Virus record (IMG/VR): IMGVR_UViG_3300037104_000796
Span: 1 to 64,000 of that record
Length of the DNA stretch: 64,000 bases
Origin: a virus
Reading direction: 5' to 3' (one strand)
Shown: positions 1 through 61,106 of the stretch, piece by piece
Position numbering within the stretch: position 1 is the stretch's first letter
How the letters are laid out: the number at the start of each line of letters is the position of its first letter
Notes under the pieces: model-generated
What the model was told of the DNA's origin: nothing
What the model saw: only the letters and a program-made list of their open reading frames with translations
Databases searched by the model: none
Translations under genes and position numbers: made by a program

Positions 1-125
1 TTCAAAGTTTTATTCTCTTTATCAATTTTGTCAACCCTGATGAGGTTTTTAGCTGTGTTAAAATATACTCCATTGAGAACTAGTTCTCCGGCTGGAATAG
101 CTGTTACTTTCGGTGATTCTTTCAT
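1..125 (-). CDS. Hypothetical protein, partial (runs off window start)
   Basis: ATG at 125 on the minus strand, open to position 1 (MKESPKVTAIPAGELVLNGVYFNTAKNLIRVDKIDKENKTL...). Confidence 0.5.
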   Translation of the reverse strand, partial: MKESPKVTAIPAGELVLNGVYFNTAKNLIRVDKIDKENKTL

Positions 126-158
126 ATGATTTTTTGTATAAAGTGTATGTAATGTATT

Positions 159-585
159 TTATGACAATTTTACTGAAAAGTTTTTGGCCATGTTTGCAAT
201 CATTTCATCAGGAACACCATGTTCATTCTGGCCTCCATGTCTGTTTTCAACAATTATTGAAAATACTGTGTAACCGTGTTGCTTTCCCATTTTTGTGTAG
301 CCATTAACGTCTCTTTCTCTAACATTTGTGTTTGCTACAACTATTACAGGAGCTCCTTCATCCATTAGCTTTTCGCATTTTGCTTGACATAACATGTGAG
401 CTCTTGAAACTCTTTGAGGAGTCCAAACGTACTCACCGTTGATATAAAGGTAATCATCGGCACAACATATAGGTGCGTTGAATAAGGTGGCAAGAGTGTT
501 CTTTCCTGAACCTGATTTATGGGAGCCCTCTTAGGATGATCAACGATCTTCCAGAGAGGGCTCCATTTTCATTTAAGTTTTTCAT
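159..585 (-). CDS. AAA_33/polynucleotide-kinase-like P-loop protein interrupted by a 7-nt gap in Walker A (recoded gene or pseudogene)
   Basis: ATG 585 gives MKNLNENGALSGRSLIILRGLP then TAA (519-517). Skipping TAAATCA (519-513) continues GSGKNTLATLFNAPICCADDY...VVANTN...ENRHGGQNEHGVP to the stop at 159, giving 139 aa with a GLPGSGK P-loop. Confidence 0.75.
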
Positions 586-1415
586 AATTTATTAAATTTT
601 TCTTGATATCTTTTTGTAAATATAAGTTTTTCTTCTTTTATTAATTGTTTTATTTCTTTTAGTTTGAGCAATTTTGTACTTTCTGTTAATTTGTAGATAA
701 AGCTATGTTCTTTACAAAATTCTATTGCAGCTTCTTGTTTTCGTTGTACGCTATCGCTTTTCCACAACATCTTGGGTTTAATTTCAACTAAAAATTTATC
801 ATTAATAAAGAAATCAGGATGATAAGTTCTTTTATTTCCCGTATAATCGATATACTCTATCCTAAATTTTCTTTTTTCACCTGTTTCCCATTTTAAATTA
901 AATCTTTCAATAACATATATCATATATGAGAGTTCTTTTAGTGAGCGAAAAAACCAACCTTTATACCATCCACACCATCCATTTCCTGAACCCTGTGGTG
1001 AAGGCTTTCCATACATTGGATTTTTATCGCCTTTAATAGCTTTAGATATATTTGTTTTCCAATTTTTATATCTTATTTCTGCTTCTTCTTTTCCATATTT
1101 TTCAATCCATGTGTCTTTTATTGTTTTTCCAAACATTCCATTTTTTTCTCCTGATGTAATATTACTCATTGTTTGTCTAAATTCTGGAGATTGATAATCA
1201 AAACCATTTTCAAGACGAGATTTACTTATTTGCTTTTTTGTAATATCGGAATGATTTTTGTTTTTAAATGCATTTTCGTGTGTTTTATTGTATTCTCTCC
1301 AATTACTTCGGCAAGAAGCGCACTTTGAATTTTTATTTTTAGCGTTATTAAATGATATTAAATTTTTATATTTAATTTTTTTATTACATTCAGGACACTT
1401 TCTTATGTATGTCAT
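582..1415 (-). CDS. Free-standing homing endonuclease, TnsA-like PD-(D/E)XK nuclease with Zn-finger/NUMOD3-like N-terminus
   Basis: CxxC motifs, NPMYGK motif, FRSxxE and YHPDF...LVEIKP nuclease motif; C-terminal half nearly identical to 60201..61106. Confidence 0.75.
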   Translation of the reverse strand: MTYIRKCPECNKKIKYKNLISFNNAKNKNSKCASCRSNWREYNKTHENAFKNKNHSDITKKQISKSRLENGFDYQSPEFRQTMSNITSGEKNGMFGKTIKDTWIEKYGKEEAEIRYKNWKTNISKAIKGDKNPMYGKPSPQGSGNGWCGWYKGWFFRSLKELSYMIYVIERFNLKWETGEKRKFRIEYIDYTGNKRTYHPDFFINDKFLVEIKPKMLWKSDSVQRKQEAAIEFCKEHSFIYKLTESTKLLKLKEIKQLIKEEKLIFTKRYQEKFNKL

Positions 1416-1591
1416 TTTTTCTTGGTAGTATTTTTTCTTTGCTTAACATTACTTTTAATTTTTTCAATGTGGTCAACTATTTCTTGTATTTTTTCTCCTG
1501 CGCAAAAGATACTATATTTTCCTTCGTATTTTACGAGAAGAATATAATCTGGTCCTTTGCCTTCAATAAGATCTTTAATGTTAATGGCCAT
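1412..1591 (-). CDS. Small hypothetical protein (59 aa)
   Basis: MAINIKDLIEGKGPDYILLVKYEGKYSIF...; its stop overlaps the next ATG (ATGA). Confidence 0.55.
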   Translation of the reverse strand: MAINIKDLIEGKGPDYILLVKYEGKYSIFCAGEKIQEIVDHIEKIKSNVKQRKNTTKKK

Positions 1592-1651
1592 ATCATATAT
1601 AATTATTTTGGTTGGATATTAATATTTATATATAATATGAATTTAAACTAG

Positions 1652-1735
1652 TAGCCGCCTTGGAAAGATTCGAACTTTCAACCATTTCTGGACCCATGTC
1701 TATCATCTGGGCTATAATCCAGAGTAGCAAAGCAG
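1652..1735 (-). ncRNA. tRNA-like element / degenerate tRNA
   Basis: Perfect T-arm GAAAG-TTCGAAT-CTTTC, acceptor pairing CTGCTTTG/CAAGGCGG, D-like stem GCTA..TAGC; anticodon arm non-canonical; lies downstream of an early promoter motif. Confidence 0.45.
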
Positions 1736-1780
1736 TGTATCATTAAGTTAAAAGAACTATTCCTGATTAATTTTGATAGT

Positions 1781-1812
1781 TAAATATAACAATAATTTCT
1801 GACACGAAAAAA
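1781..1812 (-). promoter_or_regulatory. Early (host-sigma) promoter motif TCRGARA-N6-TTATATT
   Basis: Same motif and spacing at 1781(-), 2848(-), 3068(+), 4691(+), 7665(+), 8942(+); two copies end in TATATTTG, the Bacteroidota -7 consensus TAnnTTTG. Confidence 0.65.
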
Positions 1813-1846
1813 TATTTTGCCACTTATTTTTAACAAAAATTTAATT

Positions 1847-2068
1847 TTATTCTTCAAAGGCTTCTATAAGATTCAAATCTCCTAAGAATTCATTTATCAT
1901 TTTTATTTTACTGATGCACGTTTCGGCTCCGGTAAGATAAATGTCTTGAGCATATTTAGTGGTAGCTTTTCTAGCTTCGTCTTCATATTTTTTCTGTCCT
2001 TCTTTAAGTACGTCAATCATTCTACCATACTTAATTCTCATTTTAGCTTTTAATTCTTTTGAATCCAT
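1847..2068 (-). CDS. Hypothetical protein
   Basis: 73-aa ORF overlapping the upstream gene in the same operon. Confidence 0.6.
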   Translation of the reverse strand: MDSKELKAKMRIKYGRMIDVLKEGQKKYEDEARKATTKYAQDIYLTGAETCISKIKMINEFLGDLNLIEAFEE

Positions 2069-2859
2069 AGTGGTTGTGTTTTATTAAATTTGTAATAATA
2101 TTTGCTTGGGTATAAAAGTTCTTCCATATTTGGAGGTGTTGCTGCTACAAGCATTTGAATGCCTTTTTTAATCCCGTAATAATCTAAGAATCCTTGAACG
2201 TACTCAAGCGAATATTTATACATTATAATTGAATACATGTCTTTACTTTGTATTTCTTCAGTTGATTCTGGAATATATTCGGGACCAACTATTGCTTGAC
2301 CCATTTTATAAGGGATGTAAACTGCTATTCCTTCTTCCAAAAATAAAGAGCCAAATGAATGTATAGGAATAAGTGAAAAGTTATTGTATGCAGGATTAAC
2401 ATACATGCTATCCATTCTCATTTCTCTGATAACCTGATTGAAATATATGTGTGTCAACTCATGAAGTATTGTAGTCTTTACAAAATTGTTTGCTTCTAAT
2501 AAAGAACGCTTCTTATACTTAGGAAGCCAATCCAATTCGTATTCATAATACTTTTCTTCATTTGTGATAATGATTTCACCTGAGCCTTTATAAGATAACG
2601 TTAATCCTAATACGTCTGGATTTTCATCGTATTGGCTTATGTCATCTGCTATCATTTCAATATCATACACACTATCATGTACAAACTTTGAGAATTCATC
2701 AGCCAATTTGAATTTGTTATCTTTCACATATTGCTCTATACCTTTTGTGGTTGGGATTCCTTTCTTAGTTAAAGGATAGCCATTATCGGTAATCAACGAG
2801 AGGTTAACGAATAAAAACAGTATGATAAAAAGTAGTTTATGCATGTACAAATATAACAA
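2050..2859 (-). CDS. Secreted/membrane-anchored zinc metallopeptidase (HExxH, gluzincin-like)
   Basis: Hydrophobic N-terminus (LLFIILFLFVNLSLI), ILHELTH and downstream EEGIA; true start probably the ATG at 2844. Confidence 0.6.
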   Translation of the reverse strand: MLYLYMHKLLFIILFLFVNLSLITDNGYPLTKKGIPTTKGIEQYVKDNKFKLADEFSKFVHDSVYDIEMIADDISQYDENPDVLGLTLSYKGSGEIIITNEEKYYEYELDWLPKYKKRSLLEANNFVKTTILHELTHIYFNQVIREMRMDSMYVNPAYNNFSLIPIHSFGSLFLEEGIAVYIPYKMGQAIVGPEYIPESTEEIQSKDMYSIIMYKYSLEYVQGFLDYYGIKKGIQMLVAATPPNMEELLYPSKYYYKFNKTQPLWIQKN

Positions 2860-2879
2860 ATTTCTCTGACACGAAAAAA
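2848..2879 (-). promoter_or_regulatory. Early promoter motif
   Basis: TTTTTCGTGTCAGAGAAATTTGTTATATTTG on the minus strand. Confidence 0.6.
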
Positions 2880-3067
2880 TAAATTTAACATTATTTTAAA
2901 AAACTTTTAATACCTTTAGATATACATGCACGCGCGGGTACACGTACACGACTCAGAGCAAATCTTTCCTTGAGGCTTAAATACTTAAGTTATATTGCAC
3001 ACTGGGAACAAGTTTTGTACTTTGAGTTAAATTTTTGTTAAAATTGTTGAAAATAAATAGATAAATA

Positions 3068-3098
3068 TTTCTTCGTTTCAGAAATTTGTATTATATTA
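3068..3098 (+). promoter_or_regulatory. Early promoter motif
   Basis: TCAGAAA-tttgta-TTATATTA upstream of 3117. Confidence 0.6.
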
Positions 3099-3116
3099 GT
3101 ACTATAGAAATTAAAA

Positions 3117-3317
3117 ATGGATAGATGTATTACATGTAAACACTGGACTCCGAGAACATTTTATGTTTATCCGGGTGCTATTAACGATGGAAAATGCGCT
3201 AAGTTGCCGGGTAGTAAAATGACTATAAGTTTACAAACTGGATGGGAAGGCGGATATGTAGATTACATTGAAACAGAAAGTGATTTTGGATGTACAGAAC
3301 ATAAAGCAAAAGAGTAA
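3117..3317 (+). CDS. Small Cys-rich hypothetical protein
   Basis: CxxCxHW...GxC...DFGC pattern, 66 aa. Confidence 0.65.
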   Translation: MDRCITCKHWTPRTFYVYPGAINDGKCAKLPGSKMTISLQTGWEGGYVDYIETESDFGCTEHKAKE

Positions 3318-3353
3318 GGTCTTTAAAGAATTTTGTGGATATATAAAATAAAA

Positions 3354-3992
3354 ATGGATTCACATTATTACTGTTATATCACTATCAATAAAACTAATGG
3401 CAAATGCTATGTTGGTTCTCATACACATACTGATACTTTTGATAAAAAATATTTAGGTTCAGGAAAAATTCTATCAAATGCAATAAAAAGATATGGTAAA
3501 GAAAATTTTGTTTCGGCACCTTTAAAATATTTCAAAAATAGAAAAGAATCGTACAGCAATGAAGAAAAATACATTCTATTATTTGATACACTTGAGCCCA
3601 ATGGGTATAATATAAGCCCGAATGGCGGGATAATGGGTCCCAGATTTTTTTCAGATAAAACAAAAGAAGAGTATAAATTACAAAGAAAAGGAAAAACCTT
3701 GGTCGAAATTCTCGGAGAAGAAGGAGCACGAATTAGAGGTGAAAAAATAGGTAAAAAGAAAAAAGGACAACATCATACTAAAGAAGCAAAAGATAAAATA
3801 AGTAAAGCTTTAATAGGAAAAACATATCCTCCGCGAACCGAAGAACATAAAAAACATCTTAGTGAAGCTAGTTTAAATAGAAAAATGTCCGAAACTGCAA
3901 AAGAAAAAATGAGAAAAGCAAAAAAAGGACAAATTCCTTGGAATAAAGGTATAAAACAAAAAGACTACAAAAATGGAATCAAAATTTTTTAA
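3354..3992 (+). CDS. GIY-YIG (Seg-like) homing endonuclease with NUMOD3 motifs
   Basis: YCYITINKTNGKCYVGS, YLGSG, GYNIS, HTKEAKDKIS, PWNKG; ATG 3354 preferred. Confidence 0.85.
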   Translation: MDSHYYCYITINKTNGKCYVGSHTHTDTFDKKYLGSGKILSNAIKRYGKENFVSAPLKYFKNRKESYSNEEKYILLFDTLEPNGYNISPNGGIMGPRFFSDKTKEEYKLQRKGKTLVEILGEEGARIRGEKIGKKKKGQHHTKEAKDKISKALIGKTYPPRTEEHKKHLSEASLNRKMSETAKEKMRKAKKGQIPWNKGIKQKDYKNGIKIF

Positions 3993-4128
3993 AATAGTAC
4001 AAGAAGTTAATAGAAAATCTGCGCTTTCTCAGGGATTTTACGACGGGAGATTTCGTTCACGCACCATCCCTGATAAGAAAAAGTGCGTTCACATAAAATT
4101 ACGCAAAAACAAAGTAATCATCGATTAA
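3973..4128 (+). CDS. Small basic protein, possible ArfA-like ribosome rescue factor
   Basis: Not in the ORF track; 51 aa MESKFFKIVQEVNRKSALSQGFYDGRFRSRTIPDKKKCVHIKLRKNKVIID; FRxRxxxxKK resembles ArfA FRQRVEKNKK. Confidence 0.4.
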   Translation: MESKFFKIVQEVNRKSALSQGFYDGRFRSRTIPDKKKCVHIKLRKNKVIID

Positions 4129-59225: not shown

Positions 59226-59522
59226 TTATGCTTCAACATATCCAACTGCTTTCAGGTGAGTCAATCGTGTTGCAACATCAGAAGCAATTATTTGACTCGA
59301 GTCGGTTATAATACCGCTTTTTGTTTTGTATGTCTTAACATATACGAACCACGGGTCTTCTTTGTCTTCTACAAAGACAATTGTCTGCGGTGAATGAGGT
59401 TTTGATAAAGTATAAAGAATTTTATTATCCATAAAATCTTTAATGTTTTCTGTGCTTTTTTCTTTAACGGTTTTTGCTCGATATTTGTTATACATTGGGT
59501 TTATTGAATAAAGTGTTATCAA
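59226..59522 (-). CDS. Hypothetical protein
   Basis: ORF downstream of tmk; start uncertain. Confidence 0.55.
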   Translation of the reverse strand: MITLYSINPMYNKYRAKTVKEKSTENIKDFMDNKILYTLSKPHSPQTIVFVEDKEDPWFVYVKTYKTKSGIITDSSQIIASDVATRLTHLKAVGYVEA

Positions 59523-60219
59523 GATATTTTTTATAGGTATCGAATAATGCTTCTGGTGATAATGTTTCCCAAAGCACTACTTTTGATCCTGGGACTGTAG
59601 TTGTATGAGCGCATTCAACAATTTGATAATTTTGATAACCTTTAAGTGCTAAATAGTTATCACGAACTCTTTCCTGAAATTCAATATCATTTTCATGAAT
59701 ATCTACCTTTCCTTGAAGATAATCACGATTTTCTGCTATTTTTCTTTCTTTTAATCTTTCTTTTATAAAGTCAATTGGAACATCAAAGAAAATATTCAAA
59801 TCAGGATAAGGAAGTTCCAAAAATCCAAATTCAAATTCATCAATCCAATCTCTCATTATTTGAGATTGAGCTTCATTAAAATGTTTTGCTCCTTGAAAAG
59901 CCATGTTTGAAAATACATAGCGATCTAATAATACTACATCATTAGATAAAAGTTGTTTTTGAAGAGTGGGAAGATATAAAAATCTATCCATTGCATAAAT
60001 ATTAGCAACAAATATAGGATTGACATCATTAATACTTCCGTATTCTCCTCTTAAATAAGCTGAGATACAATTGCTAGCTTCATTATTTCCATAGATAGGG
60101 AAATGAATAAATTCATATTTAAGGCCATGTTCTTCAAAATATTTTTTAATCAGTTCAATTTGAGTAGATTTTCCACTCCCATCCAATCCTTCTAAAACTA
60201 TTAATTTTGCGCCATCCAT
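59488..60219 (-). CDS. tmk: Thymidylate kinase
   Basis: IVLEGLDGSGKSTQ, HFP, DRY, PDLNIFFDVP, DIHE. Confidence 0.93.
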   Translation of the reverse strand: MDGAKLIVLEGLDGSGKSTQIELIKKYFEEHGLKYEFIHFPIYGNNEASNCISAYLRGEYGSINDVNPIFVANIYAMDRFLYLPTLQKQLLSNDVVLLDRYVFSNMAFQGAKHFNEAQSQIMRDWIDEFEFGFLELPYPDLNIFFDVPIDFIKERLKERKIAENRDYLQGKVDIHENDIEFQERVRDNYLALKGYQNYQIVECAHTTTVPGSKVVLWETLSPEALFDTYKKYLDNTLFNKPNV

Positions 60220-61106
60220 AATTCCTGATATTTATTTGTGAATATTAATTTTTTATCTTCTACCAATTGTTTTATTTCATTATGAGAAATAAGTTTTGTA
60301 CATTCTGTTAATTTATATTTAAAGTTATGTTGTTTACAAAATTCTATGGCAGCTTCTTTTTTTCTTTTTACACTATCACTATTCCATAAATTTTTTGGCT
60401 TAATTTCAACTAAAAATTTATCATTAATAAAAAAATCAGGATGATAAGTTCGTTTATTTTCTTTATAATCGACATAATCAACTTTATACTTTTTATTTTC
60501 GCCTGATTCCCATTTTAAATTAAATCGTTCTATAACATATATCATATAAGAAAGTTCTTTTAAAGAACGAAAAAACCAACTTTTATACCAGCCTGACCAG
60601 CCATTTCCGGAGCCTTGAGGTGAAGGTTTTCCAAACATATGATTGTTTTCACCTGAAGAAGCTAATGATATTTTGTTTCGTATTTTTATAGATTTTTCTA
60701 ATCCATAAATTTCTTCTAAAGTTTTTCCTTTTTGATGTAACGATGGATGATTTCCATGCCACGATCCATTAAAATTATGATTTTTTTCACCTGAAATACT
60801 TTTTGAGTGTTCAGCATTCATTTTAGACGCTAATTCATCACCATATAATTCTTCATAAGATTTTCCAGCCATTTTAGCGGCAGCACCTAATCCTGCGTTA
60901 ATATACTGTTTGTCTCTTACACCAGATAAAGCTTGTTCATGTTGTTTGCAACCTCTGCATAAATCTTTTGAATATTTTTTTAATCCAGCTTTTTGATTAC
61001 ATAAAGCAGATTTCCATTCTTTTCCACAAACATCACACTTTACAATAATAGATTGATAATTCGTTGTTGTTAAAGTTTTAAGTTGTTTAATTTCCGACAA
61101 AATCAT
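60201..61106 (-). CDS. TnsA-like PD-(D/E)XK homing endonuclease
   Basis: Paralog of 582..1415 (GKPSPQGSGNGW..FFRSLKELSYM..YHPDF..LVEIKP); overlaps the tmk start. Confidence 0.75.
   Translation of the reverse strand: MILSEIKQLKTLTTTNYQSIIVKCDVCGKEWKSALCNQKAGLKKYSKDLCRGCKQHEQALSGVRDKQYINAGLGAAAKMAGKSYEELYGDELASKMNAEHSKSISGEKNHNFNGSWHGNHPSLHQKGKTLEEIYGLEKSIKIRNKISLASSGENNHMFGKPSPQGSGNGWSGWYKSWFFRSLKELSYMIYVIERFNLKWESGENKKYKVDYVDYKENKRTYHPDFFINDKFLVEIKPKNLWNSDSVKRKKEAAIEFCKQHNFKYKLTECTKLISHNEIKQLVEDKKLIFTNKYQELWMAQN

Follow-up and report, generated by a model that had tools for sequence, protein, structure and literature searches.

A homing-endonuclease cassette that opens a short, stop-containing gap in phage Pnk-like kinase genes, probably crossed by translational bypassing

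In a stretch of viral DNA of 64,000 nucleotides (the window; positions 1 to 64,000 of IMG/VR record IMGVR_UViG_3300037104_000796), the gene for a small Pnk-like kinase is interrupted within its ATP-binding loop by seven nucleotides containing a stop codon, and a programmed translational bypass most likely makes the kinase whole. About 50 related phage Pnk-like kinase genes share this build, which consists of an AU-rich start, an open leader of 20-38 codons, a hairpin, a stop, a gap of 5-11 nt, and the Gly codon of the P-loop. From comparison of the sequences, the structure of the cassette, translation-like selection on its leader, a hairpin on the sense strand, and selection on the downstream frame can be regarded as established. 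Bypass is preferred because none of frameshifting, readthrough, restart, splicing, and decay accounts for the whole family. The cassette family is most likely a previously undescribed, short-range counterpart of the T4 gene 60 bypass; no description of a gapped kinase family was found in the literature covered, which takes in few subscription papers. The features of the locus are collected in Table 1.

Table 1. Features of the gapped kinase locus and of the paralogous nuclease, in window coordinates.
Feature	Position	Strand	Remarks
Homing-type endonuclease, free-standing, 277 aa	582..1415	-	N-terminal CxxC pairs, NUMOD3, TnsA-like PD-(D/E)xK
ORF1 of kinase	520..585	-	22 codons; cassette-borne extension of about 10 residues, strand beta-1, and RGLP
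Hairpin 5' arm, stimulatory	555..564	-	Cassette-borne; not in gap-free relatives
Hairpin 3' arm	522..531	-	Arg-Gly-Leu codons and first base of take-off codon; uses GGG
Take-off codon CCA (Pro), proposed	520..522	-	
7-nt coding gap	513..519	-	TAA 519-517, one spacer base, proposed landing triplet TCA 515-513
ORF2 of kinase	159..512	-	Resume codon GGT (Gly) and 117 codons; AAA_33 / T4 Pnk-kinase-like; intact
Paralogous endonuclease	60201..61106	-	Overlaps start of dTMP kinase gene 59488-60219

The record is a virus of 162 kb with a G+C content of about 31% and a completeness of 40% (CheckV), and the window forms its start. SD words precede only 4 of the 131 gene starts in the record and leaders are A-rich; together with the PorP/SprF and CHU_C genes of a relative, this suggests a host among the Bacteroidota. 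No tRNA genes were found in the record. Reassignment of the stop codon was considered and rejected, as TAA terminates 103 of 131 long ORFs.

The initial annotation placed the start of the kinase gene at 585, overlapping the stop of the nuclease gene, and the sequence bears this out: the ATG (585-583) overlaps the TGA of the nuclease ORF (1415-582, minus strand), and the start is AU-rich with A at -3. It also claimed that removing exactly 7 nt yields GLPGSGK, which holds, as taking out 1, 4, or 10 nt brings back the reading frame without the P-loop motif; for the 7-nt removal, three registers with their first base at 521, 520, or 519 are equivalent, each giving a product of 139 aa. The protein described there is indeed restored and intact, except that about ten N-terminal residues are extra relative to the gap-free relatives (129 aa). 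ORF2 belongs to AAA_33 (PF13671; PHROG 2071 and 505), its best solved relatives being T4 Pnk (1ly1/1ltq) and bacterial Pnkp kinases, and in the model of the gap-free relative P0001 (pLDDT 92.5) the break site lies in the phosphate loop between strand 1 and helix 1. Gap-free homologs of the window kinase are 66-85% identical to it, have 129 aa, and keep the loop intact, and the length of the P-loop is fixed across 110 homologs. In aligned DNA, the closest gap-free relatives possess neither the gap nor the hairpin 5' arm, the N-terminal extension, or the nuclease. The combination of hairpin, stop, and gap occurs at one place in the 162-kb record, as a single copy, and scans of viral contigs for close relatives using single proteins returned nothing useful. 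The gap in the window is a family trait, neither an error nor a sign of decay.

The family was assembled from pattern scans, some including the hairpin and some not, and from look-ups of database proteins truncated at the N-terminus, giving 38 distinct junctions including that of the window, two further Pnk genes (L050 and L218), and 11 gut-phage Pnk genes. Most members came from patterns requiring a stop; ten loci with the same build were found without any stop pattern, through the nuclease (L024, L025, L027, L028, and L033) or through truncated proteins (L281, L282, and L363-365). L024, for instance, lies in another phage, was found via a nuclease that is 45% identical, and has the same stem and a 5-nt gap. 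In all family junctions, the hairpin ends inside or just before the last sense codon, and gaps of 5, 6, 7, 8, 9, and 11 nt are found at one codon, thereby covering all three frames (0, +1, and +2). The invaded genes span 129-aa kinases, kinase-phosphodiesterase proteins, and full Pnk proteins. Since the gap-free comparison set consists of the best-scoring 80 of 556 loci, the prevalence of the cassette is not derivable from it. No cultured phage carrying the cassette was found in INPHARED, and gap-free Pnk genes are present in crAss001, PhiCrAssBcn24, Lak-A1, and two gut-phage records. The matches listed for the genome-collection pattern scan were all chance matches, in ABC transporters and other genes, and P0034 was rejected as a gapped gene because a run of N shortens it. 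Owing to the stop-containing gap, gapped kinases are annotated in N-terminally truncated form: the database kinases P0012, P0020, P0041, P0047, and P0065 are mis-called, shortened products of gapped genes, and P0030 and P0099 may be as well.

The gap opens with a stop in 40 of 40 Pro-type members (TAA in 25, TGA in 14, and TAG in one) and in 11 of 11 Gln-type members, so that the poorly decoded A-site codon of a bypass is in each case a stop, and it always ends ahead of a Gly codon. The take-off codon is CCN in all 38 Pro-type members scored, Ser occupies this position in 45 of 110 homologs, and no kinase with a take-off codon starting with A, G, or T was among the matches listed. As landing triplet, the 40 Pro-type members carry CCN (11), TCR (9), CTN or TTA (12), or ACA (8). 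The U-G landing proposed at the outset (UCA vs CCA) fits this distribution, as the triplet pairs with the Pro anticodon by Watson-Crick or G-U pairs at positions 1-2 in 32 of the 40; seven of the eight non-pairing ACA triplets belong to 5-nt gaps, in which the stop itself contributes the A that begins the landing triplet. Readability by the take-off tRNA is nonetheless loose, with an exact CCN in only 11 of 40 members and one unforced exception, the ACA of L218. Gap middles are without C (0/27), and the stretch from the stem base to the start of the landing triplet measures about 4-9 nt (6 in the window), with no fixed ruler. Because the landing triplet could be a remnant of the host gene's own codon, its match to the take-off codon may be partly historical. 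C-to-T is the commonest mutation, and part of the YYN landing pattern could be drift. That the triplet has persisted alongside gap middles of varying length and sequence points to selection on it.

In the 11 gut-phage genes, which encode full Pnk proteins (L185, L188, L189, L191, L193, L211, L229, L238, L246, L269, and L273), take-off and landing are both CAG (Gln) and the gap is 6 nt; CAA is used at this Gln position in gap-free gut relatives and in most orphaned starts. Several gut-cassette members carry a 5' arm identical to the 10-nt arm of the window, which indicates that the gut and window cassettes are homologous. The gut loci mostly adjoin a zinc-ribbon LAGLIDADG-like nuclease, and these phages are the most promising ones in which to look for RNA or peptide data that already exist. 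In another subgroup with 9-nt gaps (L281, 1998-2006; L363, 1256-1264; L364; and L365), an in-frame ATG or GTG directly follows the stop, and gene callers place the protein start there; restart could compete with bypass in these members.

The 10-bp GC-rich stem reported to end at the CCA codon was found where the initial annotation had placed it: on the mRNA, the 5' arm (564-555) pairs with the 3' arm (531-522), whose final base is the Pro codon's first C, and positions 480-600 fold at -36.6 kcal/mol (z -5.52), a stability equaled by none of 200 shuffles. The expectation that gap and hairpin co-occur was likewise upheld, with a hairpin in 37 of 37 gapped genes vs 0 of 78 gap-free genes; the minimum free energy over 60 nt ranges from -18.7 to -30.8 in the former and is never below -10.8 in the latter, without overlap. 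Compensatory stem changes, also anticipated, are evident, as Watson-Crick pairs form in 100 of 135 instances vs 70 ± 3.4 (maximum 85) after shuffling, counted only in stem columns not used for setting the register. Core columns -11 to -5 of the stem are paired in 37 of 37 members, with G-U present and A-C absent. The covarying positions are bases one and three of a Leu/Val/Ile codon and base three of both the Gly and the Arg codon, and the Gly codon before take-off is GGG in 35 of 38 gapped vs 5 of 78 gap-free genes, GGG making up 4% of Gly codons in the window genome. The 5' arm is read in different frames (18, 17, and 2 members across the three), and an in-frame ATG lies 19-40 codons upstream without an intervening stop in the take-off frame of 37 of 37 members and in either other frame of 0 of 37. 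No promoter or terminator signal accounting for the hairpin was found. These patterns indicate that the hairpin is selected as sense-strand RNA. The relatedness of the family members overstates the independence of the hairpin counts, yet stem changes recur across distant lineages.

Purifying selection downstream of the gap, another expectation, is found in dN/dS values of 0.04-0.28 between gapped relatives at dS up to >1. For the window ORF2 and L002, dN is 0.089, dS 0.68, and dN/dS 0.13, values that pool selection before and after insertion. Downstream selection persists in members that have lost the nuclease (L048/L049, L060, and L229/L246), and nearly all members keep a full-length ORF2; in L207 it is shortened to 74 codons. 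The branch of the window kinase has an ordinary length (0.089 vs 0.10 for its gap-free sister). In the kinase tree, a quick and weakly resolved one, gapped genes are interspersed among gap-free genes with 18 changes, at least five of them forced. The kinase may be dispensable to the phage.

The 277-aa nuclease matches Pfam PF07460 and PF08722 above cut-off and the endonuclease PHROG 15427, and its catalytic motif is intact, with D201, E211, and K213 invariant in 42 homologs. An association of gap and nuclease had been suspected and is supported: counted within 1.5 kb upstream on either strand, a TnsA-like nuclease is present at 12 of 30 gapped loci that were found independently of the nuclease vs 0 of 72 gap-free loci. 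The same cassette is also accompanied by other upstream nucleases, namely GIY-YIG (L214) and LAGLIDADG-like (gut group). Upstream of the nuclease, orphaned old starts that end at the P-loop are found in L045, L046, L214, L218, L185, L193, L238, and L273; the window has lost both the orphaned start and the 91-aa gene found there in L008. L028 and L321 represent a clean insertion pair in which the flank is 94% identical and a short tract is recoded, and many cassette insertions look recent. An intact catalytic motif, an altered target adjacent to the nuclease, patchy presence, and insertion with a recoded flank are all seen here, as in a free-standing homing-endonuclease cassette. If T4 mobA is a guide, the gap together with the recoded codons would shield the invaded gene from re-cutting. 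As the nuclease is divergent from the kinase at nine loci (L025, L027, L028, L033, L058, L207, L220, L265, and L268), the cassette is independent of translational coupling to the nuclease.

The two nuclease paralogs of the window (582-1415 and 60201-61106) share 80% DNA identity over 485 nt, and the dTMP kinase gene (59488-60219, minus strand) is ungapped and overlaps its TnsA-like nuclease. In the nuclease tree, in which L366 is the window's own nuclease and L036, another site on the L046 contig, does not represent a gapped locus, the enzyme next to the gapped kinase groups with nucleases found before dTMP-kinase genes, among them the one at 60201-61106; it may therefore not be the cutter of this kinase gene, and a nuclease swap or conversion at the locus is possible. 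The TnsA-like family also sits before other ungapped P-loop genes. In L041 (3013-3100), such a nuclease overlaps the start of a helicase gene, and two ungapped P-loop genes following related nucleases (L020 and L022) have altered loop residues, perhaps another escape from cleavage.

In the proposed mechanism, a mobile endonuclease cassette would insert into Pnk-like kinase genes of phages at their Walker A codons and supply its own gene start, joined to the remaining gene over the short stop-containing gap. Once the ribosome holds the Pro codon in its P site and TAA in its A site, the loop of the hairpin would lie about 21 nt behind the P site (20-23 in the family), with the 3' arm still in the mRNA channel. 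The stem could close fully only if the ribosome advanced, and, zipping up as the mRNA exits, it would push the ribosome forward. Peptidyl-tRNA-Pro would then release CCA, re-pair 6 nt beyond the base of the stem at UCA (U-G, C-G, A-U), and resume decoding at GGU, giving the 139-aa kinase with the exact GLPGSGK loop. P-site re-pairing in bypass is lenient, and a single bypass mechanism would cover gaps of all frames. The exact motif arises only with 7 nt taken out, the loop has a fixed length while gaps occur in three frames, and an RNA structure of the stimulatory kind is conserved, all as expected for a bypass. It is somewhat more likely than not that the cassette is a widespread, minimal, portable device in which a single hairpin, folding behind the ribosome, suffices to move peptidyl-tRNA past a stop and 5-11 nt, whatever the frame and with loose codon matching. 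Nucleases of three or more unrelated families would use it for homing into the codons of ATP-binding loops, and its members would include the first in-frame stop-hops known from nature. In hosts that use SD pairing, the SD-like word of the 3' arm might assist.

Several alternatives can be weighed against bypass. The initial annotation had allowed for an RNA cut-and-ligate element, a micro-intron whose 7 nt would be excised from the mRNA and the ends ligated by phage RNA-repair enzymes, with the hairpin as the mark. The strength and conservation of the hairpin would suit such a process, as would the targeting of Pnk-like RNA-repair enzymes and the RNA ligase genes in relatives (L008). Yet the idea is disfavored and has a slim chance of being correct, since the hairpin lies entirely 5' of an unstructured gap of freely varying length and middle, and the conserved items, which are any stop and a triplet that follows the take-off codon through the switch from Pro to Gln, are ribosome signals; moreover, no Rfam intron or ribozyme match was obtained (a chance hit in 1-4000 has E 0.55), and the insert is 7 nt. 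About as improbable is ordinary recoding, in which a +1 frameshift at CCA-UAA would add two residues to the P-loop in the window, with readthrough or -1 shifting in other members. One-base removal does restore the window frame, and the SD-like AGAGGG stands three bases before the P-site codon, which is the spacing in prfB. A Pro codon followed by a stop is also shift-prone (PMC5009743). However, three mechanisms would be needed for gaps of 5, 6, 7, 8, 9, and 11 nt, which resume in frames 0, +1, and +2 and not only in the +1 frame of prfB. Further, 2-4 variable extra residues would enter a loop of fixed length in 110 homologs, the landing triplet would be left unexplained, re-pairing from CCA to CAU would be poor, and the genome makes no use of SD pairing (4/131 starts). 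Bacteroidia ribosomes normally ignore SD-like words and shift on prfB without SD pairing (PMC10798248).

Less probable again is inactivation of the kinase by the cassette, with the gap as an insertion scar and the inverted repeat serving a DNA element. A small, accessory kinase, insertions that look recent, and the shortened ORF2 of L207 would fit, but the leader is open in 37 of 37 members, G-U pairing falls on the sense strand, ORF2 is intact in nearly all members, dN/dS is far below 1 among cassette sharers including those without a nuclease, and the window branch is not long. A still smaller probability attaches to split expression, in which a stop and restart would give a two-piece enzyme, or to RNA-polymerase slippage over the gap. 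Restart is favored by the in-frame ATG or GTG right after the stop in the four 9-nt members and by T4-like split genes with separate products (bioRxiv 10.1101/2022.08.31.505936), whereas in the window the first in-frame ATG, GTG, or TTG past the gap is at 395, where a start would drop the entire P-loop, and the break falls inside the phosphate-binding loop; for slippage, no homopolymer or repeat is long enough for realignment. The least probable explanation is an assembly or sequencing error, to which a single metagenomic contig is open. It is rendered very unlikely by an identical 7-nt gap in the unrelated contigs L055 and L282, which have a different kinase lineage and a different stem, and it is further opposed by the roughly 50 related junctions and by the absence of a matching hairpin from gap-free sisters.

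To our knowledge, natural bypassing is documented in very few systems, namely the T4 gene 60 family, the phiHau3 terminase, and the byps of yeast mitochondria. T4 gene 60 contains a bypass of about 50 nt associated with the MobA homing-endonuclease element (Manning and Atkins, bioRxiv 10.1101/2022.08.31.505936). The window cassette works like this element without being a member of its family. In both, the endonuclease inserts in a conserved active-site motif and brings a new N-terminus and a gap, take-off occurs with a stop in the A site, a matched or wobble landing precedes the resume codon, the gap is free of earlier landing sites, and the cassette persists after nuclease loss and travels with nucleases of several families. 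In contrast to T4, with which there is no sequence homology, the invaded gene here is a kinase rather than a topoisomerase, the gap is 5-11 instead of about 50 nt and lacks a take-off stem-loop or mini-SD, and the hairpin 5' of take-off is conserved, unlike the 5' stem-loop of the T4 relatives. The take-off codon also encodes Pro or Gln instead of Gly or Asp, the leader has only about 22 codons, and landing is often imperfect. Pairing of the exiting mRNA has been proposed as the forward driver in T4, where the loop is 26 nt from take-off (Wills, Parsawar and Atkins, bioRxiv 10.1101/2024.12.09.627546), and the geometry of the window hairpin fits this model.

In gap size, the kinase family is nearer to the terminase of Streptomyces phage phiHau3, which likewise has short gaps (7-10 nt) in a conserved phage motif with flanking RNA structure (Antonov et al., 2023, PMC10732093). 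The phiHau3 junction peptide was demonstrated by MS in E. coli; the trigger there is a rare UUA codon with a proposed regulatory role, the RNA structure surrounds the gap rather than preceding it, and no endonuclease is described in the sections covered. A synthetic "stop-hop" and the Magnusiomyces mitochondrial byps have been reviewed, at which time a natural in-frame stop-hop was unknown (Atkins et al., 2016, PMC5009743). The 6-nt members, with Pro-stop-Pro and Gln-stop-Gln, are literal stop-hops and, if they bypass, would be natural in-frame examples. Byps share imperfect take-off and landing matches with the kinase family, but they involve unused codons in relaxed mitochondrial ribosomes instead of stops in bacteria. 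The prfB (RF2) +1 frameshift site resembles the window in its SD-like word three bases before the P-site codon and the stop that follows, and differs in that the word here is held within a covarying hairpin and decoding resumes in frame 0, +1, or +2, varying by member. Compared with T4 Pnk, the window's relative is a stand-alone 129-aa kinase without the phosphatase domain.

The family offers about 50 natural variants of an element of about 80 nt with a covarying stem, a variable gap, and a take-off/landing switch, and thus a direct test of the exiting-mRNA-pairing proposal free of T4's other signals (bioRxiv 10.1101/2024.12.09.627546). Beside introns and inteins, the cassette would represent a third route for selfish nucleases inside essential motifs. 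Elsewhere in the window, positions 3333-3992 (plus strand) encode a GIY-YIG/NUMOD3 endonuclease, and six more weak NUMOD3-type matches occur in the record. An intergenic repeat family of 50-80 nt, common to the window phage and its relatives and probably a phage promoter element, is located at about 1661-1857 and 2849-2911 of the window and at genome positions 7664, 96600, 108450, 116830, 118140, 119720, 140960, 142900, and 143400.
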